Positions 19,637 through 49,979 of a stretch of 64,000 nucleotides of DNA are shown here, piece by piece (position 1 is the stretch's first letter; each line of letters begins with the position of its first letter). Below the pieces are notes generated by a model. It saw only the letters and a program-made list of their open reading frames with translations. It was not told the DNA's origin and did not search any database. The stretch covers positions 5,597 through 69,596 of the forward strand of contig URXV01000004.1 in the NCBI GenBank assembly GCA_900551865.1, in the 5' to 3' direction. This DNA comes from an uncultured Rickettsiales bacterium. GTDB lineage: Bacteria; Pseudomonadota; Alphaproteobacteria; RF32; CAG-239. A program made the position numbers and the translations under genes.

Positions 19637-19648
19637 GGGAGGCAGGCA

Positions 19649-27564: not shown

Positions 27565-27580
27565 ATTAGAGGTACGGTTG

Positions 27581-28345: not shown

Positions 28346-28367
28346 TTGAATGTTTAGGGTATGCATA

Positions 28368-30356: not shown

Positions 30357-33300
30357 ACGAAAATACCCGTTTTGAAGAATATGAAAGAAAAACCAGAAAA
30401 ATAATCCTTACGATAGGAATTATTGCCGGCATTTTTTTCCTGTTCGGACTGCTGGTAATTTCGTCGGACGAAGAAAATTATAACCCGGAAGAAACCTCTC
30501 CTGATTTTGTTGAAAACCAGAATATTCTTCCTGATGTTTCTGTTGATACGGAGCCGGTGTTTATAGATGCGGAGGACACGCCTGCTTCAGAGCGAAAAAA
30601 GCCGATTAAGGTTACTCCGGCTCAAATTAACATGAACAAATTTATCCTCGGTGTAGATACGCAGAATCAGAGTGTCTTAACTATTGGAACCGACGGCAGC
30701 GAAAGTATCCATATTGAGCGGGTTGAGTTGGTGGAAGAGACAGAAGACGGATTTGAGTTTCGAGACAAATGCCGCAATCGGGATTTGCGCGGAGATGAAA
30801 CCTGCAACGTTCTGATAACATGGGTGCCGCATCTTCCCGGAAATGTACAGAATAATTTTAAAATAATCTGGTATGAAACCAGATTGGATAAATCAAGTGC
30901 AAAATCGGAAGAAGTCAGCATAAAGGGAAGTGCGGTTTATCCGGAGGACACGCGCCAGGGGTGCGATGCGTCAACGGGGTGCAGCATCGGTGGCGACGGT
31001 ATAGGCGCCCATCGCTTGGCAATAGGGCCGAATGGCGAAATTATCGGCTATATAGACGAAGCGGGAAATGTACATGACCGGGACGGCAATATTATCGGCC
31101 GCGTTAATGAAGACGGAATGGTTGTCGATTCTGACGGTAATATTATTGGCGTTGCCCAAAATATGAAATTGGCTTATGACAAAGACGGCAACATTATCGG
31201 CTATGTCAAAACCGACGGCACCGTTGTCGATTTGCAGGGAGAAGTTATCGGCAAGGCTCTTCCGGACGGAACGATTGTGAACAGCAAAGGCGAAGTTATC
31301 GGCAAAGCTGTTGAAGCCGGATTTGTTTATGATGAAAATGGCAAAATAATCGGCCGGGTTCTGCCTGACGGAACCGTGGTGGACATCAATGACCCCAAAA
31401 AAATAATCGGCCGGCTGAATGAAAACGGCGAGGTTGTTGATGAAAACGGTAACGTTATCGGTAAGGTAACATCTTCCGGCAATATTGTAGTCGATGAAAA
31501 CGGCAATGTCCTCGGCGTCGTAATGCCTGATAACAGCGTTGTGGACAAAGACGGCAATATAGTCGGTTATGTTGATGAAAACGGCAATGTTTACCGGGTA
31601 GCTGAAGAAAAAATCGGTACCAACGGTGAGAGCCGGAAAATCGTTTATGACAAAGACGGCAAAGCCGTCGGTTATGTTGATGAAAACGGCAAGGTCGTTA
31701 AATTTTCAAAAGACGATAAGCCGAAAGTCATCGGGAAAGTCGGTGCCAGCCGGCGTTTGGCTTACGATAAGGATGGCAATGTTATCGGGTATGTCGATAA
31801 AGACGGAACAGTCAGGGATTTCAAAGGCAACACCATTGGCAAAATGGATAAAGACGGCAATATTGTCGGCAAAGACGGGAAAATAATTGGTAAAGCCGGA
31901 GCTTATGCCAAATTAGCCTTAGATAAGGACGGAAAAGTCATCGGGCATATTGACGAACAGGGGCGCGTCTTCGACCACAATGGAAAACACATCGGCAATG
32001 TTGATAAGAACGGCAATATCATAAGCACGGAGCGTGCCGGCAATTCGGCGGATAAAAAGCGCATTGCGTTGGGGAAAGATGGCAAACCAATCGGTTATAT
32101 TGATGATGACGGCAATGTTGTTGATTTTGATGGAAATGTTATAGGCAAAGTTAATGATAAAGGCGACATCATAGATAAAAACGGCCGCAGGATAGGAAGT
32201 GCCGGCGATTATGCGACTCTTGCTTTTGATAAAAGCGGCAAGGTAATGGGAATAGTTGATGATAAAGGACGGGTCATCGGCAAAGACGGAAAATTGCTGG
32301 GGTTTGTTGACAAAGACGGTAAAATTATCGGAACAAACGGCAAGATAATCGGCAAAGCAGGAACTTCCCGCCGGCTCGCCTATGATAAAAACGGCAAGTT
32401 TATAGGATATGTCGATACTGACGGCACGGTAAAGGGATGCGGTGGTATAGTCTTAGGAAAAGTTGATAAAGACGGTAATATTTTGGATAAAAATAACCGC
32501 GTAATTGGCAAAGCCGGAGAAGTCAGGGAACTGGCATTTAACGGCAAGGGCGTGTTTATCGGCTATATAGACGATAAAAAACGCGTAATCGATTGCAGCG
32601 GCAAAATAATCGGTGTTGTTGATAAAAACGGGAACATTATTGAATCCAGCGGCGAAAATCTTGGTACCGCCGGAAATTTCAAACGTCTTGCGTATGACAA
32701 AGACGGCAAGGTGATTGGCTATGTAACGCCTGACGGTACTGTAAAGGATTTCAAGGGTAATCTCATCGGCAGAATGTCTGCAGACGGAACAATATTGGAT
32801 AAGAAAGGTCGGGCTGTCGGCAAGGCCGGCGATTTTAGGAAAGTTGCAACGGACAAAAACGGCAATATTATCGGTTATGTTGATGAACATGGCCGTGTTG
32901 TTGACGAGAAAGGTAAAATTGTCGGTTTTATAGATAAAAACGGCAATGTAGTCAAAGCCGGAGATACCGTCATCGGCAAAACCTGCGTCAGAAAGAAAGT
33001 TGTTTATAACCGGCGCAACCAGATTATAGGTTTTGTAGAAGCCAATGGTACCGTAAAAGACTTCAATAACAAAGTTATCGGCAATGATAAAAATGGAGAT
33101 GTGGCTGATACCAAAGGAATTCTAATTGGAAAGACCGGCATAGCTTTGAATGTTGTCCGCCGGAGTGACGATGTCGTTATCGGTTATGTTGACGATAAAA
33201 ACTATGTGCGCGGTAATGAAAACAAAATTGCCGGTCTGGTTGATTTAAAAGGAAATGTGCTGGCCGTCAGGGAAAATATCATTGGAAAACTGGATGCAGA

Positions 33301-36300
33301 TAAGAAGACGCTGCGTGATAAAGGCGGTGAAATTATCGGTTATATGAAAAACAATAATTTCGCTTTTGATAAAAGCAATGAAATAATCGGATATGTAAAT
33401 GACAAGGGCGAAGTTGTCGCATCGGGAGAGATAATTTGTACGGCCTGCAAGAGCGCTAGGCTCGCTTATGATAAAAATGGCAATATCCTCGGATATGTTG
33501 ATGAAAACGGCAATGTTATCGGACCCGACGGAAAAATTGTCGGATATGTGGATAAAGACGGCAATGTTATAGGCGCCAATGGCGAAATAATCGGAAAAAT
33601 CGGCGATGGCCGCAGGCTGGCTCTTGATAAAAACGGTAAAGTCATCGGCTATATTGAGCCGGACGGCACAGTGAAGGATTTCAAAGGAAACATCCTTGGC
33701 AAAGTCGATAAAGACGGCAATATTGTTGACAAGGACGGCAACATCATCGGCAAAGCCGGTGCGGAACGCCGCCTGGCATTAGATAAAGATGGAAAGGTTC
33801 TCGGCTATGTCGATGAAAACGGGCGGGTTATCGATGAAAACGGCAATGTACTGGGGATGGTCGACAAAGATGGCAATATTATCGGAATTAACGGCGATAT
33901 TATCGGCTCGGTGGGCGAAGCCAAAAATCTGGCGTACGACAAAGACGGCAATATAATAGGCTACGTTGGCGAAAATGGCGAAGTCAGGGATTTTGCCGGA
34001 AATACGCTGGGGTATGTCGACGATAACGGTAATATTCTCAATAATACCGGAGAAATTATAGGTTCAGTCGGCAAAAATGGCAAATTAGCTTATGACAAGG
34101 ATGGCAATGTTATCGGATATGTTGATGAAAACGGCAACGTTTACGACTTTGATGGAAATTTAATCGGTAAAGCCAATCCTGACGGTACAATTACGGATCA
34201 ATACGGCCGGGTCATTGGCAGGGTAGGGGGAACCGCCGGGCTGGCTGTTGACAAAGACGGCAATGTTATCGGTTATATCGGCGAAGACGGAAACGTCTAT
34301 AAAGAAAACGGCGAACTGTTGGGTTTTCTGGATGATGACGGCAACGTCGTCGGGGTAACCGGAGAAGTCTTGGGAAAAGCGGATATAAGCAAGCGTTTGG
34401 CTTATGATAAGGACGGCAAAGTTATTGGTTACATTGATGATGATGGAACGGTTCATGATTTTGACGGCAATTTAGTCGGATATTTGGGCGAAGACGGGAC
34501 GATTCATGATATCAATGGCAATATCATCGGCAAAGCCGGAGATTTGTCCAAAGTTGTAGTTGACGAAAACGGCAAAGTTATCGGCTATGTTGATGATAAA
34601 GGACATGTAATAGGAAATGGCGGCAAGGTGATTGGGTTTGTTGCTGAAGACGGAACTGTTCATGGCAGCAGCGGAGAGGTAATCGGTCGCCTTGCGCAAA
34701 ATGGCAGCGGAACATTGAGCGTTGTTAATCGCCGGGCAGTATTGGACGGTAACGGCAATGTTATCGGCTATGTCGATGAAAATGGCAATGCCCGTGATTT
34801 TGACGGTAATATTTTAGGAACCGTGCAGGAAGACGGCAGCATTAAAGATTCTTCGGGAAAGATTGTCGGCCGGGCTGGCGACAATATGGAGTTTACTGCT
34901 GATGAGAACGGAAAGATTACCGGAAAAGTGGGGGAATATTCAAATCTGGCCGTGGATAATGACGGCAATGTTATAGGTTATGTTGGAAAAGACGGAAAAG
35001 TATATGATGCTGACGGGTTGGTAATAGGATTTATTGATGAGAATGGAAACGTCATCACCTCACGGGGTATTAAAATCGGCGCCGTCATAAAGAAGGATAT
35101 GATAGCTGTTTCCCCGAACGGATACAGCTTGGGAAGCATCAACAATCGCGGAGAAGTCGTTAATGCCAAAGACGAGGTTATTGGCAAAATACTGCCGAAT
35201 TCATTAATTCGGGCAACGGAAGGCAACAGCATTATCGGCAAAACGGTTGTCGGCGGTTTGGCTGTAGGCTGGGGATGCAGGCACTACGGATATGTTGACC
35301 GCGATGCAAAGGTAAAAAAAGACGGACAGGATACCGGATACCGGATGTTATTTGACCGCAGCATTGTAGATAAAGACGGCAATTATACCGGCGACGTAGC
35401 CAAAATAGGCTGGGTTCGGGATGATAAATGCAATATCATCGGCAAAGCCGGTTCTGACGGCTATGTGCGCGGCGAAAACGGGGAGTATGTCGGCTGTGTC
35501 AATCCTGACGGAGGAGTTTTGAATCCTGACGGAAAAGTCATCGGAAAAGTTTTTGAAATGTCCTATGCCCTGTATTACAGCGGCGAGATGATGGGACTGC
35601 TGACCCCGGACGGAAGCATTAAGTCAGGAGCCGGAACGGTTGGATGTGCAAATCTTCAAGGAGAGGTTCTGAACAAGGACGGTTTTATCGTTGGACAGGT
35701 GATGGACAAGTCTCAGGCGTATGATTTAAATGGAAAATTTATAAATAATTTATCAACATTCGGTTATGACAGCACGGAAGTTATTCCCAATACTAAAATT
35801 CTCTTGAACCGCCTTATTGTTAACCCGAAAAAAGAAATAAAGGGAATAGTGCTGCCTGAGAAAAATATAGTTGTCGATTCTAACGGTAAAGTTATCGGAC
35901 ATCTGTTTGCCGATGGTTATGTTTACAATCAAAAAGGCATTGCCGTAGACAGATTCATTTATGACGGAAGTTCTTTTTATGCAAACCGTCCCGGACGGCT
36001 TTTGCCGCAAGGGAATGTAGTGGATTTTAACGGTGATTATATTGGCTTTGTCAATGGTGATGGTACGGTTATAGATGTTTTGGGAACAGTTCTGGGACGA
36101 ATTGATGCCAAAGGTCGGATGTTTAACGAAAAAGGAGAATATAAAGGCGGAGTTCTACAAACCGGAGTTGGAATTGGGTATGACGGTTCGTATCTTGGAT
36201 ACGTCAGTAAAAGCGGCAAAGTGATTGACGTAGACGGCAATATGAGCGGGCTTGTCAGCTCAGACGGGCATGTGCTTGATAAAAATAAACAGATTATCGG

Positions 36301-36940
36301 CGAAGTCATCGGCGAAGATATTGTCATAGATGTTCAGGGCAATGTAAAAGGGTATCTGAACGCGTTCGGAGATATCATTGACGTTGAAGACAAAATTGCG
36401 GCGACAGTCCTTCCCGGCGGTACGTCAAACAAAAACTATAGTGTCCTGAAACATGGGGTCGTTTTGGATTATTCGGGGCGCATAATCGGGCAGGTCGTAG
36501 CGGATGGGTCGGTAGTTTCGGCTGACAATCGCCGCATCGGAAAAATACTGAGCTCAGGGCAGGCTGTTAATGACAGGGGGATTCTCTTAGGAGAAATCGT
36601 TGAAGGGGATATTGTAATAAACGAACAGGACAAAGTGGTTGGTTTTGTTAATGCCGAAGGAAAAGTACTGGACGAGGAGCAGTCTGTTATAGGAAAAATG
36701 ATTTCTTCAAATTTAGTTGTAGATAACAATGGAAAAATTATGGGACATCCGTATAAAATAGGTGCTAATATACTAGGGAACGGAGGAAAATATTTTGGTC
36801 GCCTTGCCCCGAACGGCAATGTGCTGAGTATAACAAACGGAAGGATTGGATATTTGAAGAGCAACGGCTCATATATAAATATCAGAAATCAGGTTTCCGG
36901 ATATGTATTGGATGAAGTCGCTCAAAACCGGAGGAACTGA
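30353..36940 (+). CDS. Giant single-pass membrane protein made of ~100 copies of a 17-residue repeat
   Basis: ATG at 30353 overlaps the virB9 stop (ATGA); the ORF is open from TTG 30332. Short basic N-tail plus one TM (IILTIGIIAGIFFLFGLLVI), then a ~170-aa non-repeat domain. The rest, to the C-terminus, is the unit (I/V/L)G-x-(V/I)-x-x-DG-x-(V/I)-x-D-x-x-G-x-(V/I). Confidence 0.85.
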   Translation: MNENTRFEEYERKTRKIILTIGIIAGIFFLFGLLVISSDEENYNPEETSPDFVENQNILPDVSVDTEPVFIDAEDTPASERKKPIKVTPAQINMNKFILGVDTQNQSVLTIGTDGSESIHIERVELVEETEDGFEFRDKCRNRDLRGDETCNVLITWVPHLPGNVQNNFKIIWYETRLDKSSAKSEEVSIKGSAVYPEDTRQGCDASTGCSIGGDGIGAHRLAIGPNGEIIGYIDEAGNVHDRDGNIIGRVNEDGMVVDSDGNIIGVAQNMKLAYDKDGNIIGYVKTDGTVVDLQGEVIGKALPDGTIVNSKGEVIGKAVEAGFVYDENGKIIGRVLPDGTVVDINDPKKIIGRLNENGEVVDENGNVIGKVTSSGNIVVDENGNVLGVVMPDNSVVDKDGNIVGYVDENGNVYRVAEEKIGTNGESRKIVYDKDGKAVGYVDENGKVVKFSKDDKPKVIGKVGASRRLAYDKDGNVIGYVDKDGTVRDFKGNTIGKMDKDGNIVGKDGKIIGKAGAYAKLALDKDGKVIGHIDEQGRVFDHNGKHIGNVDKNGNIISTERAGNSADKKRIALGKDGKPIGYIDDDGNVVDFDGNVIGKVNDKGDIIDKNGRRIGSAGDYATLAFDKSGKVMGIVDDKGRVIGKDGKLLGFVDKDGKIIGTNGKIIGKAGTSRRLAYDKNGKFIGYVDTDGTVKGCGGIVLGKVDKDGNILDKNNRVIGKAGEVRELAFNGKGVFIGYIDDKKRVIDCSGKIIGVVDKNGNIIESSGENLGTAGNFKRLAYDKDGKVIGYVTPDGTVKDFKGNLIGRMSADGTILDKKGRAVGKAGDFRKVATDKNGNIIGYVDEHGRVVDEKGKIVGFIDKNGNVVKAGDTVIGKTCVRKKVVYNRRNQIIGFVEANGTVKDFNNKVIGNDKNGDVADTKGILIGKTGIALNVVRRSDDVVIGYVDDKNYVRGNENKIAGLVDLKGNVLAVRENIIGKLDADKKTLRDKGGEIIGYMKNNNFAFDKSNEIIGYVNDKGEVVASGEIICTACKSARLAYDKNGNILGYVDENGNVIGPDGKIVGYVDKDGNVIGANGEIIGKIGDGRRLALDKNGKVIGYIEPDGTVKDFKGNILGKVDKDGNIVDKDGNIIGKAGAERRLALDKDGKVLGYVDENGRVIDENGNVLGMVDKDGNIIGINGDIIGSVGEAKNLAYDKDGNIIGYVGENGEVRDFAGNTLGYVDDNGNILNNTGEIIGSVGKNGKLAYDKDGNVIGYVDENGNVYDFDGNLIGKANPDGTITDQYGRVIGRVGGTAGLAVDKDGNVIGYIGEDGNVYKENGELLGFLDDDGNVVGVTGEVLGKADISKRLAYDKDGKVIGYIDDDGTVHDFDGNLVGYLGEDGTIHDINGNIIGKAGDLSKVVVDENGKVIGYVDDKGHVIGNGGKVIGFVAEDGTVHGSSGEVIGRLAQNGSGTLSVVNRRAVLDGNGNVIGYVDENGNARDFDGNILGTVQEDGSIKDSSGKIVGRAGDNMEFTADENGKITGKVGEYSNLAVDNDGNVIGYVGKDGKVYDADGLVIGFIDENGNVITSRGIKIGAVIKKDMIAVSPNGYSLGSINNRGEVVNAKDEVIGKILPNSLIRATEGNSIIGKTVVGGLAVGWGCRHYGYVDRDAKVKKDGQDTGYRMLFDRSIVDKDGNYTGDVAKIGWVRDDKCNIIGKAGSDGYVRGENGEYVGCVNPDGGVLNPDGKVIGKVFEMSYALYYSGEMMGLLTPDGSIKSGAGTVGCANLQGEVLNKDGFIVGQVMDKSQAYDLNGKFINNLSTFGYDSTEVIPNTKILLNRLIVNPKKEIKGIVLPEKNIVVDSNGKVIGHLFADGYVYNQKGIAVDRFIYDGSSFYANRPGRLLPQGNVVDFNGDYIGFVNGDGTVIDVLGTVLGRIDAKGRMFNEKGEYKGGVLQTGVGIGYDGSYLGYVSKSGKVIDVDGNMSGLVSSDGHVLDKNKQIIGEVIGEDIVIDVQGNVKGYLNAFGDIIDVEDKIAATVLPGGTSNKNYSVLKHGVVLDYSGRIIGQVVADGSVVSADNRRIGKILSSGQAVNDRGILLGEIVEGDIVINEQDKVVGFVNAEGKVLDEEQSVIGKMISSNLVVDNNGKIMGHPYKIGANILGNGGKYFGRLAPNGNVLSITNGRIGYLKSNGSYINIRNQVSGYVLDEVAQNRRN
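31620..35080 (+). repeat. Higher-order in-frame tandem repeat (~57 aa / ~170 nt, about 20 copies) inside the giant gene
   Basis: The recurring block is KAG-x4-LAYDKDGKVIGYVDEDGTVKDFKGNxIGKVDKDGNIVDKDGxIIG. Many exact 15-20-nt DNA matches recur, such as gataaagacggcaatattgt. The copy number is an estimate by eye. Confidence 0.7.
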
Positions 36941-36941
36941 T

Positions 36942-39900
36942 TTGCGCATTAAGATATTTGGATTAGGCAGGATTATATTGTCTGCGGCGTTGTTTTGGAG
37001 TATCAGCCAGAATGCCGTTGCAGCAGATATGAGTGCGCTTAATTTTAATGGAGATCTTATCGGTAAAGTCATTCCGGACGGTTCTGTTATTAACTTCAAT
37101 AATGAGCTTGTCGGTCATATTACGGCTGACGGCTTTGTGTTAAATGAGGATAACAGCCTGGCAGGCGGCATTGTTCCGCAGGGAATAGCCATATCTTATA
37201 ACAACAGCATCTTGGGAAAAGTCAACAATGACGGTTCTGTAACATCAATTAACGATAATCTTGTCGGAAAGGTTCTGCCCAATGGTTTGGTTGTAAATGA
37301 TAATTATGATGTACTGGGAGCCGTGGTCTCTCCCGGGCTAGTTTACAATGATTCGGGCAGTATCGTCGGAAGAGTTTCCGGAGACGGGCGTTTTTATAAT
37401 CTTGCGGGAGAAAATTCGGGGTTTGTAACCGCGGCAGGATATGCTTACGGCTATGCCGGAAGCGAAAGAAAAATCTTTTTGGCCGGCAGGTTGATTTCTT
37501 CCAAGATGGTTGTTTCATCGCAGGGGAAATTTTTGGGAAGTATCGCCCCGGACGGAAAAGTAATTGATTTGAAGAAAAATGTTATCGGCAATATTCACGC
37601 CAACGGTTTTGCATACAGCCCAGACAATCAGGTAATAGGCCATGTTGTCGAGGGCGGGTATGCTTTTGCTCTTGACGGAAGTTATATGGGGGTTGTCAGC
37701 TACAACGGAGAAGTCGTCAATAATGGTACGGTTGTTGCCCTGGCAGTTAGCGGCAATCGCGTTATTAACAGGGAAGGCGGCATTATTGGCTTTACCGTAA
37801 GTATGTCTGCTACGGCTAATACGTTGGACGGGAAATATCTCGGGCGGATTACGGCAGACGGAAAAATCGTACGGGGGCGAAATAAGGTTGGAAAAATCGG
37901 CGCATCCGGGCATGTTATAGATGACAAAGGGACGATTATTGGCACCGTAAATGCAACCGGGCCGATATTTGATTATTTAGGACAGCTTCGGGCAAATGCT
38001 TCGATTGGCGGAAAGGTCGTTTCTTTGGAAGGCGTTGACTTGGGGATAATGAAATCCGATGAAGCTTTTGATGGCAACGGCAAACGCATCGGTAAAATCT
38101 TGTCTGAGCGGCTAAATTTTAACAACAGCAATGACTTCATCGGTATCAGTGGCGTTAATTCAGTTTTGGAAGTTGGCGGAAAAACTTATAGAATATCGCC
38201 TTATGGCTATGTTTTCAATGAAACGGGAAATGTTAACGGAAGAAATTTCAACTTTGGCGACATTTATTCTCCTGAGGGAACAGCCCTGTCCTACACATCA
38301 GGCAATGGAAAAACAGAAAACGGTTCTCTGAATGAAATTGCTCGATTAACCGGCTCCGGTATATTTCTGGATAAAAATGATAAGCCGTTAGGTAAAATAA
38401 TTGAAGACAAATATATAACGGACTTTTCTGGAGAAAGTCTGGGAACTGTCAATTCGACAAATCTGGTTGTAAACGGGCAGAATAAGGCTTTTGCCAAAGT
38501 ATTGCCGGATGGCAGCGTTGTGAGCCTTTCCGGTCGGATTTCCCGGAATTACGGTAGAGCCGGAAGTGCCCCGGTAAGCATCAGCATAAACGGCGACTAT
38601 CTGGGAACGAATTTAATAAGCGGACAGGTTGTAAACGGAAATGAAACGGTCGGAAAAATAAGCTCTAACGGATACGTTTTGGATAACATGGGAGCGTTGT
38701 ACGGAACTGCTCTCTCTATGGGAGCCGTTGTTTCGCCTGAGTGCGGATTTTTAGGCGTAGTTTCTGACGGCGGAGAGGCAAGAACAAGCAAAGACGCATA
38801 TTTGGGAATGGTTTTGGCAAATGGTCAGGTTGTTAATGAAACGGAGCAGGTCGTCGGCCATGTCATCCACCCGCGTACGGTAATTGGCGAAAACGGAACG
38901 TCAATTGGGGTGTTAAGTCCGTTGGGAACGGCTCTGAACTATAAAAATCAGAATTTGGGATGTCTGGATATCAATGGTAAAGTTCGAAATGCCCAGAAAG
39001 AAATTATCGGTCAGATAATCCCGTATATGTCGGTAATGGGGTTTGATGATAAAATTATCGGATATACGGATTTTTATGGTAATGTGGCAGATAGTTCCGG
39101 AATTCAAACCGCTGTTATTGATTTAGACGGCAGTATTAAGGCCAAAGATGGGCGCAATATTGGTGTTCCTTTTAAATACACGGTAGCTTTTGACCGGAAT
39201 AACGTTTATCTTGGGCGCGTAAAGGCTGATGGCAGTGTAGTTTCCGATAGCGGCGAAACTTTGGGGCAAGTTAGGTATAACGGCGAAGTAATCACTAAAA
39301 ATGGCGGGAACGGCTACGCGTTATATGATTTGTATGTCTATGACAATGAGGGGAAAACCGTCGGATATATCGCCAAAAACGGTCGGGTTTACAGCGTAAT
39401 GGGAGAAATTATCGGAACTGTTTATCAGGGATTTGTACTGGATAAAAAACAGAATTTAATCGGTAGAGGAGCAAGGGGCTATGAAATTCTTGATGCGCAG
39501 AAACAGGTAATAGGTCATTTGAAGTTAGATGGTTCGGTTGTTAATGTCAAAAATGTAGAAGTTGGAAAACTTCAGCCGGATGGAAAGGTAACGGATGCTG
39601 GCGGCAACGTAATTGCTGTGGCCGAAAAACTCCAATATTATCAAAAACCGGTTGAACCGGAAAATGGAGTAAAGACGGCTGTTGAAACCAAAGGTGAAGA
39701 AACGGAAAATAAAACTCCGGCAGACGAAATTCATGAACAAGACGAAACTGATAAAACAGCAGAAAGCAGTGATGCGCAGTCAGGCATATCCACGGAGGAA
39801 GAAAATATCCCGGAGCTGACCGAGGAAGAAAAAGAGGCCGCTGATACCAAAATAAACCATAAAGTCATAGGGATAGCCGTAACACCGGGAGGAAGGTATA

Positions 39901-41264
39901 TCGGTGATGTATACAGCAATAATAAGGTAATAGATGAAACCGGAACCGTTGTTGGCAACATGGGAGAAAATGGCGAAATCACCGATAACGAGGGGAATAC
40001 GGTAGGCTCTCTGCAAGAGCAGAAATCGGAAGATGCCAAAAATATTAATACAAGATGGTGGCAGCAGATTGCAAGCGGAGCTACGGTTAATCCCTGGGAT
40101 TACCGAAACGAAGTAACCAATGTCGGTCCCGGCGGCGGTATAGGTCCCGGCGGCAGATATAATCCGAAACGTGCCGCTATATTGTCCCAGCTGCAGGAAG
40201 AGCGCCGTAGGACAATGACTGCGGCAAAAGTAATGCCCGGCTATAATGCTGCTTCATACACCGGTTGGCAGGACGATTGGGGGATAAACCGGGCAGTTTC
40301 GACTTTGCGGGTTAATATGGATAATATGATTACCGCAGATAAACCGATACCGGCTGTTTTGGCCAGATCCTTGATTTCTTTGGGTGAAGCGCCTGTTACT
40401 GCAATTGTGGAAAGGAATGTGTACGGAGATTCGGGGCGTAACGTTATTATTCCGGCCGGAAGCCGGGTAATCGGCGGGCTGCAGACAGTAGATGTAGAAA
40501 GCCGTTTTGACAATTCAAGTGGCGGTGTCAAACTTGAAATATCTTGGAGCAGGATAATTCGTCCTGACGGGATTGCATTTCTTCTGGATGCAGGAAGGAC
40601 GCAGACCGGTGATGCGCAGGGGCGCGGTGGCGGCGCTTTGGGATATGTTGATGAACAGCTGGTCAAAAAATATACGTTGCCAATCGTAGGAACGATGGTC
40701 AGCTCGGCAATAACGTATATGATGGCTGCTGATGAAGACAGTACCGGAGAGGTGGAAACGTCCAAACAGCAGGCAGCAACAGATGCCCGGCAGGAATTTA
40801 TGGATAAGATGGATCAGATATTGCAGGAAATTATTGACAGCAAATCGCAAATTCAGCCGGTTACCTATGTTCCGGCCGGAACAAGAATAATCATTTATCC
40901 GATGACCGATTTGTGGCTGAGAAGTACGAAAGATATTGAAAAGAACGTTGAGACAGCGCGTCCGGGCGGCGGAGACGGCGGTTTGGTCAACGAAGTATAT
41001 CCTGACGATGGCGGGACAAGAAGCACATCTCAGGTAGAAGGAAATAATGCCAATAACAGCCAGAAGGTTATTTTGGGCAATCAGGCGCAGACCAACAATA
41101 ATAGCGGTGGTGATGGCCTTGTAAACGAAAATCCGCAGAATAATCCGAATGCTCCTCAGCCGAGAAAGAATATCGGGGCAATTCCGCCGCCGGCAGCAGA
41201 CGGATCGGTCACGGAAGCTCCCGAGAGTGAAGAAGAAATATCCGGCGATATTGAACTGTTCTAA
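36942..41264 (+). CDS. virB10: VirB10/TrbI-family protein with ~900-aa N-terminal 17-residue-repeat region (CagY-like architecture)
   Basis: RBS GGAGGA then TTG at 36942 (the ORF also has ATGs at 36903 and 36912). N-terminal anchor/signal IFGLGRIILSAALFWSISQNAVA. About 50 repeat units follow (LIGKVIPDGSVINFNNE, LVGHITADGFVLNEDNS ...), then an acidic linker. The VirB10 C-terminal domain is at 40335-40920 (PAVLARSL..VTAIVERNVYGDSGRNVIIPAGSRVIG..WSRIIRPDG..TYVPAGTRIIIYPMTDLW). A ~110-aa Gly/Asn/Pro-rich tail ends the protein. Confidence 0.8.
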   Translation: MRIKIFGLGRIILSAALFWSISQNAVAADMSALNFNGDLIGKVIPDGSVINFNNELVGHITADGFVLNEDNSLAGGIVPQGIAISYNNSILGKVNNDGSVTSINDNLVGKVLPNGLVVNDNYDVLGAVVSPGLVYNDSGSIVGRVSGDGRFYNLAGENSGFVTAAGYAYGYAGSERKIFLAGRLISSKMVVSSQGKFLGSIAPDGKVIDLKKNVIGNIHANGFAYSPDNQVIGHVVEGGYAFALDGSYMGVVSYNGEVVNNGTVVALAVSGNRVINREGGIIGFTVSMSATANTLDGKYLGRITADGKIVRGRNKVGKIGASGHVIDDKGTIIGTVNATGPIFDYLGQLRANASIGGKVVSLEGVDLGIMKSDEAFDGNGKRIGKILSERLNFNNSNDFIGISGVNSVLEVGGKTYRISPYGYVFNETGNVNGRNFNFGDIYSPEGTALSYTSGNGKTENGSLNEIARLTGSGIFLDKNDKPLGKIIEDKYITDFSGESLGTVNSTNLVVNGQNKAFAKVLPDGSVVSLSGRISRNYGRAGSAPVSISINGDYLGTNLISGQVVNGNETVGKISSNGYVLDNMGALYGTALSMGAVVSPECGFLGVVSDGGEARTSKDAYLGMVLANGQVVNETEQVVGHVIHPRTVIGENGTSIGVLSPLGTALNYKNQNLGCLDINGKVRNAQKEIIGQIIPYMSVMGFDDKIIGYTDFYGNVADSSGIQTAVIDLDGSIKAKDGRNIGVPFKYTVAFDRNNVYLGRVKADGSVVSDSGETLGQVRYNGEVITKNGGNGYALYDLYVYDNEGKTVGYIAKNGRVYSVMGEIIGTVYQGFVLDKKQNLIGRGARGYEILDAQKQVIGHLKLDGSVVNVKNVEVGKLQPDGKVTDAGGNVIAVAEKLQYYQKPVEPENGVKTAVETKGEETENKTPADEIHEQDETDKTAESSDAQSGISTEEENIPELTEEEKEAADTKINHKVIGIAVTPGGRYIGDVYSNNKVIDETGTVVGNMGENGEITDNEGNTVGSLQEQKSEDAKNINTRWWQQIASGATVNPWDYRNEVTNVGPGGGIGPGGRYNPKRAAILSQLQEERRRTMTAAKVMPGYNAASYTGWQDDWGINRAVSTLRVNMDNMITADKPIPAVLARSLISLGEAPVTAIVERNVYGDSGRNVIIPAGSRVIGGLQTVDVESRFDNSSGGVKLEISWSRIIRPDGIAFLLDAGRTQTGDAQGRGGGALGYVDEQLVKKYTLPIVGTMVSSAITYMMAADEDSTGEVETSKQQAATDARQEFMDKMDQILQEIIDSKSQIQPVTYVPAGTRIIIYPMTDLWLRSTKDIEKNVETARPGGGDGGLVNEVYPDDGGTRSTSQVEGNNANNSQKVILGNQAQTNNNSGGDGLVNENPQNNPNAPQPRKNIGAIPPPAADGSVTEAPESEEEISGDIELF
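37050..39600 (+). repeat. 17-residue repeat region of the VirB10-like protein
   Basis: Same periodicity and consensus as the upstream giant, but more diverged and less charged. A few more units follow the acidic linker (39860-40010). Confidence 0.65.
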
Positions 41265-41362: not shown

Positions 41363-42343
41363 ATGGGAAAGTTGGACGATGAGGTGCTCTGCTCCGTTTT
41401 GAGGCCGCTTGCCTATTGGTATGAACAGGAAAATATCGAGGAAGTTGCAATCAACCATCCCGGAGATATTTGGCTCCGCTTGCGCGGAAAACGGGCTTTT
41501 CCTTGGGTAAACTATAAAGACCCCAAACTCTCAAGAGAATATTTGACCAATCTTCTGCATATTATTGCCAATTTGAATGATCAGGAGTTTGATCCTATTA
41601 ACGGGTCTCCTGTAGTTTACGCCCGAATTCCCGGAGGGCATCGTTTCACCGGCGTGGCCGGAAAAAACATTGAATACGATTTGGACGATTCGGCAACGGG
41701 GGGCATAGCCATAACAATACGTCTTCATACGGATGATGTTGCTTTCGGTTTTGGCGATTACGGGCTGGAGCAAGGTAAAAGGCTAAAGGAAATAAATCCG
41801 TTAAAAAACATAAAAGACCCGGATGACGCTTATGAACGTCTTCTTCTTGCGTTACGCCGCGGAGACCATATTCTTGTCAGCGGTGGTACCGGTACCGGTA
41901 AAACGACGTTGTTGAACAATTTGCTAAAGCTTTTGGATATTCATAAGAGGGTTATTACCGTAGAGGATACGCGGGAACTTAATGTGCCGCAGCCAAACCA
42001 TGTTCACATCGTCCTGTCGCGTACGGAACAGACTAACAGTATGGATTATTCCAAAGTTATCGACTTGATTGTGCGTTTTACGCCTGATGCCATTATTGGC
42101 GGTGAGATTTCAACCAGCAATGCTGCCGCCATCTGGGAACTGATGGGTTCCGGTCATGATAACTGCTTGGCGACAATCCATGCGGAAAGTTCGACTGCTG
42201 CCTATGAAGCGTTTGTAAAACGTATAATGCGCACTCAGCCTCACATTGATGTGGAAAAAACCATTGAAGAAATGCGTCGCAAACTCCATGTCGTCCAAAT
42301 TGTCCGAGATGGAAACATCCGCGGCATAACCGAAATCACCTGA
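41363..42343 (+). CDS. virB11: VirB11/TrbB-family T4SS ATPase
   Basis: 326 aa. Walker A GGTGTGKTT, VITVEDTRE, and His box GHDNCLATIHA. Confidence 0.9.
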   Translation: MGKLDDEVLCSVLRPLAYWYEQENIEEVAINHPGDIWLRLRGKRAFPWVNYKDPKLSREYLTNLLHIIANLNDQEFDPINGSPVVYARIPGGHRFTGVAGKNIEYDLDDSATGGIAITIRLHTDDVAFGFGDYGLEQGKRLKEINPLKNIKDPDDAYERLLLALRRGDHILVSGGTGTGKTTLLNNLLKLLDIHKRVITVEDTRELNVPQPNHVHIVLSRTEQTNSMDYSKVIDLIVRFTPDAIIGGEISTSNAAAIWELMGSGHDNCLATIHAESSTAAYEAFVKRIMRTQPHIDVEKTIEEMRRKLHVVQIVRDGNIRGITEIT

Positions 42344-42393: not shown

Positions 42394-43035
42394 TTACAGC
42401 AAATCTGCCGTTTCTGCCTTTAGCTCATCTAAATACAAATTTTTTTCCGAACTTGTTTTCAGAACCGTAACATGGGCAGCTGTATGTTCTCTGACAATTT
42501 TATCCGTTGCCGTCAAAACCTTTTCCAGTTCTTTGGCGCTTATCTTGTCAATTTTGGTTAAGACAATCTGATAAGTTACCGCAGCTTTGTCCAGCATTTC
42601 CATAATTTCCTCATCGATTTTTTTTATGCCGTGGCGGGAGTCAATCAATAAAAAAACTCTCCTTAGGGTTGCCCTGCCAACTAAATAGGAATTAATCAGT
42701 TTCTGCCAGTTTTTAACAATATCTTTCGGAGCCTTGGCAAAACCATAACCGGGTAAATCAACCAGATAGAGTTTGTCATCAAGGTTAAAATAATTGAGCT
42801 GCTGTGTCCGTCCCGGCGTCGACGAAGTTTTTGCCAGTTTTTTTTGGCCGAAAAGAGCATTAATCAAACTGGATTTCCCGACATTGGAGCGGCCGGCAAA
42901 AGCCACTTCCACCCTGTCGCCGTCCGGTAGCTGATTCAAATTTGCAACACTTAAGACGAAATCGCATTTTTTATTAAAAAGTTCCCGTCCGCGTGCCAAA
43001 CGCTCTTTTTTTTCTTCAGAGATGTCTTCAGCCAT
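42394..43035 (-). CDS. engB: Ribosome biogenesis GTPase EngB/YihA
   Basis: G1 GRSNVGKSS and G3 DLPGYG. It follows yidC with a 1-nt overlap. Confidence 0.9.
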   Translation of the reverse strand: MAEDISEEKKERLARGRELFNKKCDFVLSVANLNQLPDGDRVEVAFAGRSNVGKSSLINALFGQKKLAKTSSTPGRTQQLNYFNLDDKLYLVDLPGYGFAKAPKDIVKNWQKLINSYLVGRATLRRVFLLIDSRHGIKKIDEEIMEMLDKAAVTYQIVLTKIDKISAKELEKVLTATDKIVREHTAAHVTVLKTSSEKNLYLDELKAETADLL

Positions 43036-44756
43036 TACTCTACTCCGTTTTTGCGCATAATCGCTTTTTGCTGGATGATAGACAGGATATTGCTCAAAGT
43101 CCAGTAAATAACCAGACCGGAAGCAAAATGGCCGAGCATAAAGGTAAAGAATACCGGCATCAGGGCAAACATCCTCGCCTGGTCTTTATTAACCGGTGCC
43201 GGATTAAGTTTTTGCTGCATCCACATGGTGAACCCCATAAAGATGGGCCATAAGCCGATATCAATAAATCCCGGAACATAAATATGAAGAATTTGCGACA
43301 GTGTCAGCGGATCCGGGGCAGACAGGTCTTTAATCCAGCCGATAAACGGGGCATGCCGAATCTCAATTGCAATGTTCAAAACCTTATACAGTGAGAAAAA
43401 TACCGGAATTTGAATCAGCAGCGGCAGACAGCCCGAAGCCGGATTAATCTTTTCCCGCTTATAAAGTTCCATTGTCGCCTGCTGAATAAGCATTTGATTG
43501 TCGCCGTATTTGCTGCGGATATCGTTGATTTTCGGCTGCAGTGCTTTCATCTTTGCCATACTTGTATAAGACTTGTTGGCAATAGGGAACATGCACAACC
43601 TGAGCAAAGCGGCAAAAAGCAAAATAGCCCAGCCCATATTGCCGAGAAAGCCGTACAAAAAGTCCAAGATATAAAAGAACGGCTTTGTCAGGAAATAATA
43701 CCAGCCGAAATCAACAGCCAAATCAAACTTGGGAATATGGTTTTCTTTGGTATATTTATCCAGAAGTTTCACCTCTTTGGCTCCTGAAAACAGTCTATAG
43801 GAATAAGAGGCCTCTCCGCCGGCAGGAAGGATAACCCTTGACCCAAGAAAATCAGCCTGATAGTTGTAATCGCCGTTATTTTTAAAAGTTACTTTGGCTT
43901 TGTCTTGGTTGCCGAGGATTAAAGCTGAAAACCAATAGCGGTCAGAAAAGCCAAGCCAGCCGCCGGAAGTTTCAAAACTCTCGCTGTCATCGCTGTCTAA
44001 ATCTTTGTATTTTAGTTCATGAAGCGTATTGTTAATAACGCCGTTCATACCTTCATGCACAACGGAGCGCGTTTGAGCCATATCTTTTATATTGCGGCTG
44101 ATAAGGGCATAAGGGAACAGCTCGATTTCTTCTTTTGTATTGTTTACAACAGTGTCATCAATCGTAAAAAGATAATTTTTATCCATAGAAATTTTTCTGG
44201 TAAATATAAGTCCTTGTCCGTTTTCCCAACTCAAAACGATAGGTTTGTCAGGCGTAAGAGCAGTATCCTGCGTCCTCCAGATGGTATTGGCCGTCGGCAA
44301 TGCCAGATTCTTGTCCAATGAAAGCCATCCCAAGTCAGCAAAATATTGGTTTGCCGTTTGAGCAGGTTTTAACAATTCGACTTTGGAACTGTTTTCCTCT
44401 AAAGAAACGTTATATTTTGTCAGATACAAATCGTCAAAACGGGCGCCTTTTAGCCTGATGCTTCCGGCAACGGAATTATTTTCAAATTTAATACGGGCAT
44501 CTTCGGCAACAGCATCTTCGGTTGTTTTAACTGCTGCGGGAGAAACCTTTTCGGCAGCAGGATGTTTGAATTGCTCCGTAGCCTGTTCAATTTCGGATAT
44601 TTGCCGCTGGACAGCGCTCTTCTTGTCAATGCCGAAAAAATAGTTGACGGAATAAATGGCAATAAAGGACAATAAAATTGCCAGCGACAGAGATCTCAAT
44701 TCATCTTTCATCTTTAATATGTCTCCTGCAGTATTGTTTCTCTTTAATAATTTCAC
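43035..44756 (-). CDS. yidC: Membrane protein insertase YidC
   Basis: 573 aa. N-terminal TM, a large periplasmic domain, and a C-terminal 5-TM core (GCLPLLIQIPVFFSLY). Confidence 0.9.
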   Translation of the reverse strand: MKLLKRNNTAGDILKMKDELRSLSLAILLSFIAIYSVNYFFGIDKKSAVQRQISEIEQATEQFKHPAAEKVSPAAVKTTEDAVAEDARIKFENNSVAGSIRLKGARFDDLYLTKYNVSLEENSSKVELLKPAQTANQYFADLGWLSLDKNLALPTANTIWRTQDTALTPDKPIVLSWENGQGLIFTRKISMDKNYLFTIDDTVVNNTKEEIELFPYALISRNIKDMAQTRSVVHEGMNGVINNTLHELKYKDLDSDDSESFETSGGWLGFSDRYWFSALILGNQDKAKVTFKNNGDYNYQADFLGSRVILPAGGEASYSYRLFSGAKEVKLLDKYTKENHIPKFDLAVDFGWYYFLTKPFFYILDFLYGFLGNMGWAILLFAALLRLCMFPIANKSYTSMAKMKALQPKINDIRSKYGDNQMLIQQATMELYKREKINPASGCLPLLIQIPVFFSLYKVLNIAIEIRHAPFIGWIKDLSAPDPLTLSQILHIYVPGFIDIGLWPIFMGFTMWMQQKLNPAPVNKDQARMFALMPVFFTFMLGHFASGLVIYWTLSNILSIIQQKAIMRKNGVE

Positions 44757-44800
44757 TCTTTCTAATATAAAAAAGCCGTTTTGTAAAGCATTATAGGGGG

Positions 44801-45097
44801 TTAATCCGTATCTTTGTTTTGTAGCCGGGGATTCTGCTTTGTTTGTTCTTTTGCCTGAGGAACGGGGTCATAGCCGGAGCCGCCCCAGGGATTGCATCGA
44901 AGCAGGCGCTTTATGCCTAAAATGGAACCGTGGAACAAGCCGTGCTCCTGAATGGCCTGCAGCATATATTCCGAACAGGTTGGCGTATAGCGGCAGGCAT
45001 GAGGCAGCAATGGCGATATCCATTTTTTATAAAACCGCAGCGAAGATGTAACGAAAACAAACAGAATATTGCGGCAAATATGGAGAGCTTTTTTCAT
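44801..45097 (-). CDS. yidD: Membrane protein insertion efficiency factor YidD
   Basis: [31 protein letters not shown] motif. Confidence 0.85.
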
Positions 45098-45105
45098 TGT
45101 GCCTC

Positions 45106-45522
45106 TTAGGCAACGGAGTTGTCAGGCTTTACCGGAACAGCATCGTCGCAAGGCGTGTCACGGTTTTCATCGTTTTGTGGAACAAAGTTTTTATTAATGC
45201 GTTTAATGGCATAAATAACATCTTTTTTCAATTCCTTGAAATTGCATTCGGCAGTAGAAAGCCGTGCAATAAAAACATAATCAACCCCGGGCGCGGCATA
45301 ATGCGGCAAAACGTCTCTGGCAATAGCGCGCAACCGTCGTTTGCTTTTGTTGCGGATAACGGCATTGCCGATTCTTTTGGTTGCGGTATAACCGGTCATA
45401 ATGTCCGGTGTTGCAGATAAACTATGAGCCGCCTGAAGAACCATATTGTGTGTTGCAACATGAAAACTCTGGGCGACCCGTAGAAAATCTTTTCTTTTTT
45501 TAAAAGTAAGTATTTTTGTCAT
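45106..45522 (-). CDS. rnpA: Ribonuclease P protein component
   Basis: Small basic protein between rpmH and yidD. Contains the RNase P protein-like block [20 protein letters not shown]. Confidence 0.8.
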
Positions 45523-45533
45523 CTGCTTATAAA

Positions 45534-45668
45534 CTAAGCTGAAAGTCTTTTACGACCTCTCGCGCGGCGGGCAGCCAAAACCTTGCGGCCGCCGGCAGTT
45601 GCCATACGGGTACGAAATCCGTGACGGCGGGCTCTTACCAGCTTACTGGGTTGATAGGTACGTTTCAT
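45534..45668 (-). CDS. rpmH: 50S ribosomal protein L34 (not in the supplied ORF track)
   Basis: The reverse-strand translation is [44 protein letters not shown]. Confidence 0.9.
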
Positions 45669-45873
45669 ATTAAATCTCCGGTTAGTTATTAATTATTTAA
45701 AGGCAGGCTAAACGGCCGCCTCTCGGTTTACGCAACCTCTTATAAAAGCAAATATCTAAGAAGTCAATATTTTTTTGCACCCCGGACCGATGGCGTAAAA
45801 ACAAAGAAATGACTTGAAAAATAAAATAGTTGTGTTATAAAACTTATATATTTTGGAGGTTTGCGTTCTTGCC

Positions 45874-46230
45874 ATGATTATAGACAGCAAAAATGAAACA
45901 CAAAAAAGTATTTTGACCAATAAGTGTTTTTATCAGACGACAGCTCAAATTATGCATGAATTTGAGAAAAAGGGATATGCTAATTCGGCTGATGAAACCG
46001 CTAAAGTTATTGCTGCATATCATGATTTGGTTCAGAAAAAAGCCAAAAATAACTTTAGCAAAGATTATAATGAGGCATTTAAAAAAATTGACGATGCCAT
46101 TAAGGGGCTGGCCAATAAGGTATTTTACGGATATGAAAATAAAAGTCTTGACTATGCCTATAAATCATTTGCAAAATTTGACTATATTAATGCTATAATC
46201 GGTCGCCAGAGAATTAAAAAGAAACTCTGA
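45874..46230 (+). CDS. Small hypothetical protein (AT-rich orphan)
   Basis: RBS GGAGG then ATG at 45874. Lys-rich and helical. No recognisable family. Confidence 0.4.
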   Translation: MIIDSKNETQKSILTNKCFYQTTAQIMHEFEKKGYANSADETAKVIAAYHDLVQKKAKNNFSKDYNEAFKKIDDAIKGLANKVFYGYENKSLDYAYKSFAKFDYINAIIGRQRIKKKL

Positions 46231-46432
46231 TTTTTCCCCATTTATCCTTTTTTTTAAATTAAAGTAAGGATTTCTTATCTGTCCAATAATGCTCTGTCCG
46301 GTGCATATTCGGCCAAATAAGGGTATTTCCTCAACAGGCTTGTTGATTCTTTATAATCTTGATTTGCCAAGACGGGAAAAGGAGCATACGATAAAAACAT
46401 AACATAATATTATATTGCAAAAGGATTTCGAT

Positions 46433-47407
46433 ATGTCTGAAATTTCTGTTATTGGCAGTGGCCGTTGGGGAACTTTCCTTGCCTGGTATGCTGCAAACTG
46501 CTGCGGAATGGAGAGGGTGAAAATATACAGCCGTCCGACATCTCCCGATTTTATTGAATTGAAGGAAACGCGCAAAAATGCATATTTGTCGTTGTCGGAC
46601 AATATGTTTCTGTATGAAAAAGTTTCGGAAGTCTTGGATAACGATTTTATCATTATCTCTATTGGCAGCCAACATCTGCGTTCGTTGGCAAAAGAGTTGA
46701 ACGGGTATAATGTCGCCGGTAAAACCTTTTTGCTGGCAATGAAAGGACTGGAAGAACCAAACGCAACGTTGTTGAGTACGGTTATGCGTGAGGAAATTAA
46801 GCAGCCGATTCATATTGCGACCTTAGGCGGGCCGGGGCATGTTCAAGATTATATGAAAAAAGTTCCGTCCTGTGCCGTGATAGACAGCGATGAGGAAGAG
46901 GTTAAAGGCCGTGTTATCAAAATGCTGCAAAGTGATTTGATACGGTTTTATTATGGTGCAGATTTTATAGGCAATCAGATAGGTGCGGCGCTCAAAAACG
47001 TTATTGGCATAGCGGCAGGTATTTTGGATGGTCTGGAATGGTATGGGTTAAAAGGCGCACTGATGGCGCGTGCACCGGTAGAGGTCGGGCGCTTTATTAA
47101 GCATTTTGGCGGCAATCCGATGACTGCTTATGGGCTGTCTCATTTGGGGGATTATGAGGCAACGCTGTTTTCGAAGCATAGTCATAATCGTATGTTTGGA
47201 GAAATGTTTGCTAAAGGAGAGGGGTTTGGCAAATTGGCCGAGGGATATTATACCCTAAAGGCAGTAAAAAATATTGCCGACAGGGAAAACATCAATATGC
47301 CGATATGTCAGGCTTTATATAAAGCTGTGTACGAAGGGGCAGATGTAAAGCAGACTATTCGCTCAATGTTTGACCGCGACCTCAAACATGAGTTTGAGCA
47401 GTTCTAA
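46433..47407 (+). CDS. gpsA: NAD(P)H-dependent glycerol-3-phosphate dehydrogenase family protein
   Basis: N-terminal Rossmann motif ISVIGSGRWGT. Also GPGHVQD and ALKNVIGIAAGI blocks. The ORF is open from 46415. Confidence 0.75.
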   Translation: MSEISVIGSGRWGTFLAWYAANCCGMERVKIYSRPTSPDFIELKETRKNAYLSLSDNMFLYEKVSEVLDNDFIIISIGSQHLRSLAKELNGYNVAGKTFLLAMKGLEEPNATLLSTVMREEIKQPIHIATLGGPGHVQDYMKKVPSCAVIDSDEEEVKGRVIKMLQSDLIRFYYGADFIGNQIGAALKNVIGIAAGILDGLEWYGLKGALMARAPVEVGRFIKHFGGNPMTAYGLSHLGDYEATLFSKHSHNRMFGEMFAKGEGFGKLAEGYYTLKAVKNIADRENINMPICQALYKAVYEGADVKQTIRSMFDRDLKHEFEQF

Positions 47408-47433
47408 ATTTTTATTTTTTCAATATGTAAGTA

Positions 47434-47462
47434 AAAGCGCTGATTTTTAATGTCAGCGCTTT
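47434..47462. terminator. Bidirectional hairpin terminator between convergent gpsA and recF
   Basis: Perfect 10-bp stem AAAGCGCTGA/TCAGCGCTTT with a 9-nt loop, flanked by A/T runs. Confidence 0.65.
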
Positions 47463-47498
47463 AAGTATTATCTTTTGTGGAAAGGCGCTGCTTAAAAA

Positions 47499-49853: not shown

Positions 49854-49979
49854 TATTTTTATCCTAAAAAAAGACTTATCTTTATCTTCTTACACTCTAC
49901 CACAAATCAGCAAAAGCAGAAGTCAAAAAATAAGTCTTCAACAATTTTTTTGTTTAAGCCCAAAATCCGGAAAACCAAA

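Follow-up and report, generated by a model that had tools for sequence, protein, structure and literature searches.

The window analysed here is a 64,000-nucleotide stretch of contig URXV01000004.1 from an uncultured Rickettsiales bacterium. Its plus strand, on which all features below lie unless otherwise stated, carries a row of type IV secretion system (T4SS) genes running from VirB2-like open reading frames (ORFs) through VirB11. We examined two adjacent genes of this row: the ORF called at 36903–41264, which encodes a VirB10 homologue, and the gene immediately upstream (30353–36940), whose translation from ATG gives a protein of 2195 amino acids (aa), referred to here as the giant. Structurally and energetically, VirB10 forms the bridge of Gram-negative T4SSs. 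It is ordinarily a single chain of ~380–400 aa comprising a cytoplasmic tail, a transmembrane (TM) helix, a Pro-rich linker and a barrel (TrwE is 395 aa long in the structure-match listing), and models of channel gating assume that one polypeptide extends across both membranes. VirB10 is regarded as the one T4SS protein that needs such a chain, running from the inner to the outer membrane, to relay ATP-driven conformational signals. In the window, these parts are probably shared between two polypeptides, with the inner-membrane portion on the giant and the outer-membrane portion on the VirB10 homologue.

The VirB10 homologue carries a true VirB10 outer-membrane domain. A VirB10/TrbI C-terminus had been proposed at 40335–40920 from the sequence; a search with the TrbI profile (Pfam PF03743) placed the domain at 40329–40919 (aa 1143–1339; the aa positions of the Pfam domain, linker and tail of this protein are counted along the ORF 36903–41264) with E=3.3e-29 and a score of 102.5 bits (cut-off 35), covering profile positions 2–188 of 188. 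The NCBIfam models T4SS_VirB10 (89.6 bits, cut-off 220) and T4SS_ComB10 (118.5 bits, cut-off 300) match the same stretch, both below their equivalog cut-offs, and by these scores the protein is a divergent member assignable to neither equivalog. A phmmer comparison with solved structures matched the C-terminal region to ComB10 (2bhv, E=3e-18), TrwE (E=6.5e-6) and CagY (E=5e-4). Foldseek searches with an AlphaFold2 model returned VirB10-family domains at E=5e-10 to 2e-4 and target TM-scores of 0.5–0.6 (6gyb_C, 8rt6_A, 7o3j_A, 3jqo, 2bhv, 6x6k and 9ngw), drawn from X. citri VirB10, R388 TrwE, pKM101 TraF, Cag CagY, ComB10, F and Dot/Icm DotG. The model also contains the helix-loop-helix ‘antenna' of the TrbI domain (40653–40844, aa 1251–1314) in the expected position. 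Its two helices occupy model residues 998–1022 and 1034–1061, corresponding to protein aa 1251–1275 and 1287–1314; their pLDDT is only 43–67, as expected for a monomer model.

The VirB10 homologue lacks the Pro-rich periplasmic linker; a beta-hairpin array and an acidic linker stand where it would be. The array (37023–39638) consists of ~51 degenerate units of 17 aa, delimited by Pfam, autocorrelation, a hidden Markov model (HMM) and the structural model. BLOSUM autocorrelation peaks at lags of 17, 34 and 51, and the Pfam families Bflower_2/Bflower match seven stretches with a total of 181 bits. In the AlphaFold2 model, aa 254–913 form an unbroken run of ~75 short strands, or 37–38 hairpins, at pLDDT ~90–95; extrapolating this density to aa 41–913 gives the ~51 units, in line with the estimate of about 50 copies in the preliminary description. 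Three further hairpin units follow beyond the acidic linker, after a short helix (39867–40013; model strands 735–786, pLDDT 83–90). With a pTM of 0.60 overall, for 1200 residues of which 260 are disordered, the model suggests that the array may be one body and not beads on a string. No credible match to the repeat array was obtained when the model was searched against the PDB with Foldseek; low-probability matches were to Tc-toxin/RHS shells, beta-propellers and BamB. The acidic linker (aa 913–988, 39639–39866) agrees closely with the stretch earlier marked at 39640–39860. It has a pI of 4.26, 23% Glu and pLDDT 29–43, is predicted to be disordered and is poorly conserved across orthologues. 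Behind the barrel, the expected Gly/Asn/Pro-rich tail is present as a predicted disordered segment rich in N, G, E and P (aa 1340–1453, 40920–41264). It ends in a conserved PPP...ADGS...LF (41180–41261), the terminal aromatic of which recalls the C-terminal signals of outer-membrane proteins.

The giant contains the same type of repeat, as had been noted from the sequence. Its ~113 beta-hairpin units of 17–18 aa (31025–36892) match Bflower_2 in 25 stretches totalling 474 bits and are organised into 52-aa super-repeats (17+17+18), with autocorrelation peaks at 52, 104 and 17. Units of both proteins share the framework [ILV]-G-x-[VI]-x-x-[DN]-G-x-[VI]-x-[DN]-x-[DN]-G-x-[ILV], with D/N-G at unit positions 7–8 and 14–15, and PF21784/PF21785 score above the gathering threshold. 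Because an HMM built from the giant's units recovers only 32 of the units in the VirB10 homologue (12 at E<0.01), the latter are far more degenerate. Durairaj et al. 2023 (PMC10584680) defined the beta-flower families (PF21784/PF21785, clan CL0395) on the basis of AlphaFold models. The hairpin unit with [DN]xxG-type turns is common to those proteins and to ours; however, the described beta-flowers are small single domains of ~96–116 aa with 4–6 petals (PMC10584680), whereas here 50–115 hairpins form uninterrupted arrays inside a core protein of a secretion system. The giant also gives scores with models of RHS/YD repeats (Pfam RHS_repeat E=1e-17, TIGR01643 E=2e-26; no single stretch is significant), and a low-confidence model of its N-terminal 450 aa shows a weak match to teneurin. 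YD repeats may be distant relatives of the hairpin unit.

The two proteins begin quite differently. For the VirB10 homologue, the ORF 36903–41264 stands as first called, with its start corrected from 36903 to a likely TTG codon at 36942 that yields 1440 aa here. Gene calls elsewhere, giving 1442 aa, use the same start; the homologue P0121 begins at the TTG codon equivalent to 36942, and gene calls in eight contigs concur. The junction with the giant (36930–36944) consists of a Shine-Dalgarno sequence GGAGGA at 36930–36935, the giant's TGA at 36938–36940 and the TTG, which lies one base past the TGA and seven bases past GGAGGA. Orthologue alignment and hydropathy identify the first residues as a Sec-type signal peptide, MRIKIFGLGRIILSAALFWSISQNAVA (36942–37022), with a predicted cut before ADMSALNF. 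With 71 orthologues aligned at the cut site, 65 have Ala and six have Ser at position −1, and position −3 is Ala in 50, Val in 11, Leu in four, Ser in three, Thr in two and Gly in one, so that the −3/−1 rule of signal peptidase I is satisfied in 71/71. Since its N-terminus obeys this rule throughout, the VirB10 homologue probably has no membrane anchor. Residues before the cut site are variable and those after it highly conserved. The hydrophobic peak of the segment (1.65) is close to that of the VirB9 signal peptide (1.72); the helix of the giant reaches 2.88.

It is the giant that opens like a VirB10, as the preliminary description had suspected. A cytoplasmic tail, TRFEEYERKTRK, leads into a TM helix (aa 17–37; 30353–30463) recognised by hydropathy, orthologue comparison and modelling: the Kyte-Doolittle peak of 2.88 falls at aa 17–35 and the modelled helix covers residues 4–37. 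Across 71 orthologues the uncharged run has a median of 22 residues (range 17–28) and includes no AxA site. Distant giants have LTHSExYxKKTNR in place of TRFEEYERKTRK, and a motif of the form (S/T)xSExY(I/V)(K/R)K(T/S)NR or FEEYERKTRK directly before the helix is common to giants and to one-piece VirB10s. VirB10 tails contact T4SS ATPases, and this conserved cytoplasmic motif is a candidate contact site. Beyond the helix lies a putative ASH/PapD-like immunoglobulin (Ig)-like domain with two invariant Cys (~aa 85–195; 30605–30937). It is suggested by phmmer, which matches the giant's N-terminus to tandem-ASH proteins (for example P0232, with 15 ASH domains), and by Foldseek, which with a low-confidence N-terminal model returns the Ig domains of MSP, CEP192-ASH, HYDIN and VesB at probability 0.96–1.0 and weak E-values. 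A PDB sequence search with the giant's N-terminus gave no match. Since one protein carries a signal peptide and the other a cytoplasmic motif, TM helix and Ig-like domain, the two are topologically complementary.

The most decisive evidence on the relationship between the two genes is given by relatives in which their parts occur in a single chain. A word-indexed search with the first 240 aa of the giant returned only 14 contig-end fragments, whereas exhaustive phmmer found one-piece proteins, represented by at least seven sequences of 1930–2350 aa that are mutually <50% identical. The N-termini of these seven (P0267, P0268, P0304, P0333, P0338, P0342 and P0332) match giant residues 1–230 at E=1e-9 to 8e-19; their TrbI regions are 42–48% identical to that of the window, and all seven end in [LMI]F. 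Pfam matches to Bflower and to a C-terminal TrbI were found in the five that were scanned (P0267, P0268, P0304, P0333 and P0338). P0267 is co-linear with residues 2–1505 of the giant and 25–1326 of the VirB10 homologue. In the three loci that were read, independent assemblies from NCBI, ENA and JGI, the single gene (P0267, P0268 or P0338) lies after VirB8(-VirB8)-VirB9 and before VirB11. The one-piece proteins share with the window's pair the cytoplasmic motif, TM helix, putative ASH-like domain, repeat type, TrbI domain and C-terminal [LMI]F; they differ in being one chain of 1930–2350 aa, whereas the window's lineage has two chains totalling ~3635 aa with a new signal peptide on the second. 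Shorter, more distant alphaproteobacterial one-piece VirB10s of ~510–530 aa also exist, among them P0221, in which a lipobox-type N-terminus and an ASH domain recognised by Pfam precede TrbI, and P0223, with an N-terminal TM helix, an ASH-like domain recognised by eye, a Pro-rich linker and TrbI.

These comparisons bear on whether the 1440-aa protein could be a complete VirB10 held in the membrane by an uncleaved signal anchor, the giant being an accessory periplasmic or envelope protein with the same kind of repeat, such as a peptidoglycan-binding scaffold or spacer. Both proteins do possess an N-terminal hydrophobic segment, the giant's array varies threefold in length between species, which is what an accessory under looser constraint would be expected to show, and relatives of the beta-flower carry a cell-wall-binding annotation (PMC10584680), with VirB9 itself carrying a SPOR domain. 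We nevertheless regard this arrangement as unlikely in view of the −3/−1 pattern in 71/71 orthologues, the weak hydrophobic peak (1.65 versus 2.88), the change from a variable segment to strong conservation at the cut site, and the one-piece relatives that unite the giant's N-terminus with TrbI, in the same slot at the three loci read. The earlier suggestion that the VirB10 homologue is half of a split VirB10 is supported by three lines of evidence: a cleavable-looking signal peptide in place of an anchor, the anchor on the giant, and the one-piece relatives, which at the three loci read occupy the same position.

In 68/68 species loci holding both, the genes are adjacent, show translational coupling and remain separate, with no case of fusion. 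The giant's stop is abutted or overlapped by the downstream frame, but how the two frames relate varies among the 68 loci; because this differs between loci, there is no conserved recoding, and a programmed frameshift or readthrough was rejected. The same observations speak to the broader concern that the split is an artefact of frameshift, mis-assembly or recoding and that a single polypeptide is really made. Repetitive genes are error-prone, the giant of one metagenome contig (L092) is broken into 1196 + 856 aa, and six loci have the two frames in phase with nothing but a stop codon between them. Against this, the arrangement of stop, Shine-Dalgarno sequence, start and signal peptide recurs in every one of the 68 loci, from many independent projects, with a new signal peptide beginning after the stop each time, which leaves an artefact with next to no likelihood. 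The L092 giant is called as two ORFs within a 6589-nt span (1411–7999), a frameshift that reflects an error of sequencing or assembly or else a pseudogenised copy; of eight independently assembled contigs of the species, this is the one with a frameshift in the giant, and the length of the VirB10 homologue, repeat region included, is kept in 8/8.

So large a repeat region in a VirB10 brings to mind CagY of Helicobacter pylori, and we considered whether in-frame recombination among the repeats might tune or switch the T4SS within populations, as a contingency device. The CagY gene contains very many direct DNA repeats that undergo in-frame recombination (PMC2194252, PMC3585145), and this alters T4SS function (PMC2194252, PMC3585145, PMC5954226). 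The layout is indeed similar, in that CagY is a VirB10 orthologue with a very large repeat region ahead of its C-terminal domain, and the C-terminal domain of our protein matches the CagY structures 6x6k, 6odi and 8cb2. However, the match is confined to that domain, the repeats belong to another sequence family, CagY is one chain and not two, and DNA-level repeat identity is lacking here. The longest exact direct repeat in the gene of the VirB10 homologue is 12 nt (13 nt in a non-repetitive control gene), repeat copies are 60–75% identical at the DNA level, and Tandem Repeats Finder reported nothing in 36942–40800 and almost nothing overall. Variation in repeat number among related strains and bins, which the preliminary description had proposed looking for, was sought and none was found in the VirB10 homologue: 15/15 listed variants of a 697-member species cluster are 1442 aa long, and eight independently assembled contigs of this species (L088–L095, the contigs carrying P0121, from which the giant's within-species constancy was read) have a 1442-aa VirB10 homologue and a 6588-nt giant in 8/8. 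Orthologues that are 34–96% identical keep its length nearly constant, and Gly positions are invariant repeat by repeat along the entire array. Since Gly is invariant in this manner at nearly constant length, each repeat has its own identity, and we infer that the structure of this array is fixed.

The giant, by contrast, changes from species to species. Its gene holds one 26-nt exact repeat, its length ranges from 1035 to 3151 aa, and its indels relative to the window copy fall in blocks of 104, 206–209, 367 and 466 aa, multiples of the 52-aa super-repeat. We infer from this that its array is an extensible spacer that changes in modules of 52/104 aa between species. These gains and losses, with the 26-nt repeat, are what might be cited in favour of a contingency device; for the VirB10 homologue that explanation is largely refuted, and for the system it appears very improbable. 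The CagY-like architecture earlier proposed therefore survives as a layout and not as recombining, length-variable repeats, and the analogy is only architectural.

Taken together, we consider it likely that the giant (30353–36940) and the VirB10 homologue (36942–41264) are two halves of one VirB10, separated by a fission inside a beta-hairpin array, in a chromosomal and vertically inherited P-type T4SS. The N-terminal half would reside in the inner membrane with its tail in the cytoplasm and its array in the periplasm; the C-terminal half would be exported through Sec, cleaved, and built together with VirB9 into the outer-membrane cap. The halves could then re-associate non-covalently, probably through the first ~150 mature residues of the C-terminal half, restoring the inner-to-outer-membrane bridge that an ordinary VirB10 makes with one chain. 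Conservation has a peak at this mature N-terminus; across 71 orthologues, the identity of these first ~150 residues to the window is 0.70–0.74, compared with 0.69–0.83 for the TrbI core, a strong conservation that would fit an interface; the extreme C-terminus of the giant is also conserved. With hairpin arrays in place of the Pro-rich linker and ~14 copies per machine, the periplasmic core would be unusually massive. The most parsimonious origin would be a series in which a TM-ASH-linker-TrbI protein received a hairpin array and then underwent fission inside it, after which the downstream half would have gained a signal peptide and the upstream half expanded modularly.

Several observations weigh against a split VirB10 or against parts of this account. 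The signal peptide of the C-terminal half looks cleavable, its cleavage being read from the −3/−1 rule only. Re-association of the halves through their repeats is conjectural, and the conservation of the giant's C-terminus is weak evidence for contact, since its last codons contain the Shine-Dalgarno sequence of the gene that follows, which accounts for at least part of that conservation. Pfam ASH has no match to the giant at E<=10, and hhalign showed no significant similarity between the giant's N-terminal domain and the ASH region in the short VirB10s (probability 0.3%). The fission point is not mappable owing to the ambiguous register of the repeats: the mature N-terminus of the C-terminal half best matches residues ~290–515 of all seven one-piece proteins, and the best co-linear alignment to P0267 begins at 586. 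Fission, as opposed to fusion, is the most parsimonious direction and does not come from a rooted tree.

A more specific architecture can be put forward tentatively, as a possibility that we would not yet favour. Here VirB10 would consist of two non-covalently joined chains whose arrays dock edge to edge in the periplasm, with the inner-membrane half acting as a modular ruler (52/104-aa modules, 1035–3151 aa) that sizes a multi-megadalton, peptidoglycan-tethered core. If this is true, it would represent an undescribed T4SS architecture, inherited vertically, next to the replication origin, throughout a lineage of commensals that are abundant in the gut.

Comparison with characterised systems places the split VirB10 as a variant form of a known T4SS and not as a new kind of system. 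It shares with the canonical VirB10s (A. tumefaciens VirB10, pKM101 TraF, R388 TrwE and X. citri VirB10) the barrel and antenna, by sequence and fold, and the gene position between virB9 and virB11. It differs from them in that the tail and TM helix are on a separate upstream protein, the chain bearing the barrel opens with a signal peptide, ~51 + 113 beta-hairpin units stand in for the linker, and scores stay below the NCBIfam equivalog cut-offs. DotG (IcmE) of Legionella and Coxiella likewise has a repeat-containing, length-variable middle region before a TrbI-like C-terminal domain (PMC6761968), and our C-terminal domain matches DotG in 9ngw and 7muq. However, DotG has pentapeptide repeats and belongs to a type IVB system, whereas here the period is 17 (not 5 or 10), the genes form a VirB-type set and two chains make up the protein. 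Neither a split VirB10 nor a secretion system with beta-flower repeats came up in our literature searches, which also found nothing relevant on RF32 together with T4SS, on DUF3659 or on truncated VirB10; in databases these proteins are named only ‘TrbI/VirB10 family protein' or ‘DUF3659 domain-containing protein'.

A natural, lineage-wide fission with extant one-piece relatives offers a comparative system for asking whether VirB10 needs covalent continuity, in which a signal peptide has been added to the C-terminal half while the N-terminal half has grown, reaching 3151 aa at its longest. The recently named beta-flower repeat is thereby given its first clear machine context, and attention is drawn to a conserved chromosomal T4SS in uncultured Alphaproteobacteria of human, mouse and ruminant guts.

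The remaining genes of this VirB-type row are described next. Three small, tandem VirB2-like ORFs of 124, 111 and 121 aa (11024–11398, 11767–12102 and 12112–12477) each have a signal-like segment and two more hydrophobic segments, like VirB2/TrbC pilins; a long minus-strand ORF that overlaps them (11725–12408) is probably spurious. A VirB3-like ORF of 96 aa (12589–12879) overlaps the start of VirB4 (12869–15322). Between VirB4 and VirB8 lie five ORFs of 408, 744, 232, 448 and 1818 aa (15378–26436) with no confident family assignment: no convincing Pfam family was found for any, and each has at most one hydrophobic segment. The 1818-aa ORF (20980–26436) keeps its position in other species at an identity of only 19–67%. 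Two VirB8 paralogues (26474–27232 and 27578–28345) precede the 668-aa VirB9/CagX homologue (28350–30356; Pfam CagX E=1.7e-14, SPOR E=3.8e-4), which has a signal peptide, a low-complexity linker of ~250 aa rich in Asn, Ser, Gly and Gln, and a C-terminal peptidoglycan-binding SPOR domain. The SPOR domain and the low-complexity stretch are unusual for VirB9, and the former suggests that the core is tethered to the cell wall peptidoglycan. The VirB9 stop overlaps the ATG of the giant (ATGA), a 4-nt overlap also seen in the L088–L095 gene calls. After the VirB10 homologue comes the VirB11 ATPase (41363–42343; NCBIfam TIGR02788 E=4.8e-47, and Pfam T2SSE). No VirD4, relaxase or polytopic VirB6 was recognisable within the window.

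The order ORF1818-VirB8-VirB8-VirB9-giant-VirB10-VirB11 is conserved at every locus with enough flank, and wherever a genome locus extends far enough, the giant is found upstream of the VirB10 gene. Downstream of the T4SS are engB, yidC, gpsA, recF, dnaN and dnaA (42394–51446), and because these housekeeping genes adjoin it, the cluster is chromosomal. It ends ~6–9 kb from recF-dnaN-dnaA, beside the presumed replication origin, and the recF-dnaN-dnaA/engB/yidC/gpsA neighbourhood is conserved in related species, with rnpA and rpmH also beside yidC in L088–L095.

The host lineage comprises uncultured gut and rumen Alphaproteobacteria. About 1000 public proteins have the Bflower + TrbI architecture (1374–1767 aa among the 120 matches listed), and a scan of one genome per species found at least 304 species genomes with confirmed loci, nearly all of uncultured Alphaproteobacteria from the guts of humans, mice, ruminants and other animals. 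Among public records, the closest is the metagenome-assembled genome (MAG) ‘Acetobacter sp. 46_36' (96% identity for the VirB10 homologue, 99% for the giant). One species' VirB10 homologue is present in 101 blocks of the sequence collection, and neither of the window's two proteins, nor the giant of L001, with either start codon, has an exact entry in the protein collection. Because the repeat array often breaks short-read assemblies, the giant is under-represented at full length, and most database matches to its N-terminus (P0135–P0148) are short fragments on contigs of 1–4 kb. Three T4SS loci (L039, L059 and L063) come from bins labelled Lachnospiraceae, Bacteroidaceae and Lactobacillaceae, which are probably mis-binned contigs or mislabelled MAGs. 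Finally, the minus strand of the window (161–10759) holds a separate type IVb-pilus/type II secretion system (T2SS)-like cluster that encodes a TcpQ-domain protein, a secretin, a PilO-like protein, a T2SSE ATPase and a T2SSF platform protein.

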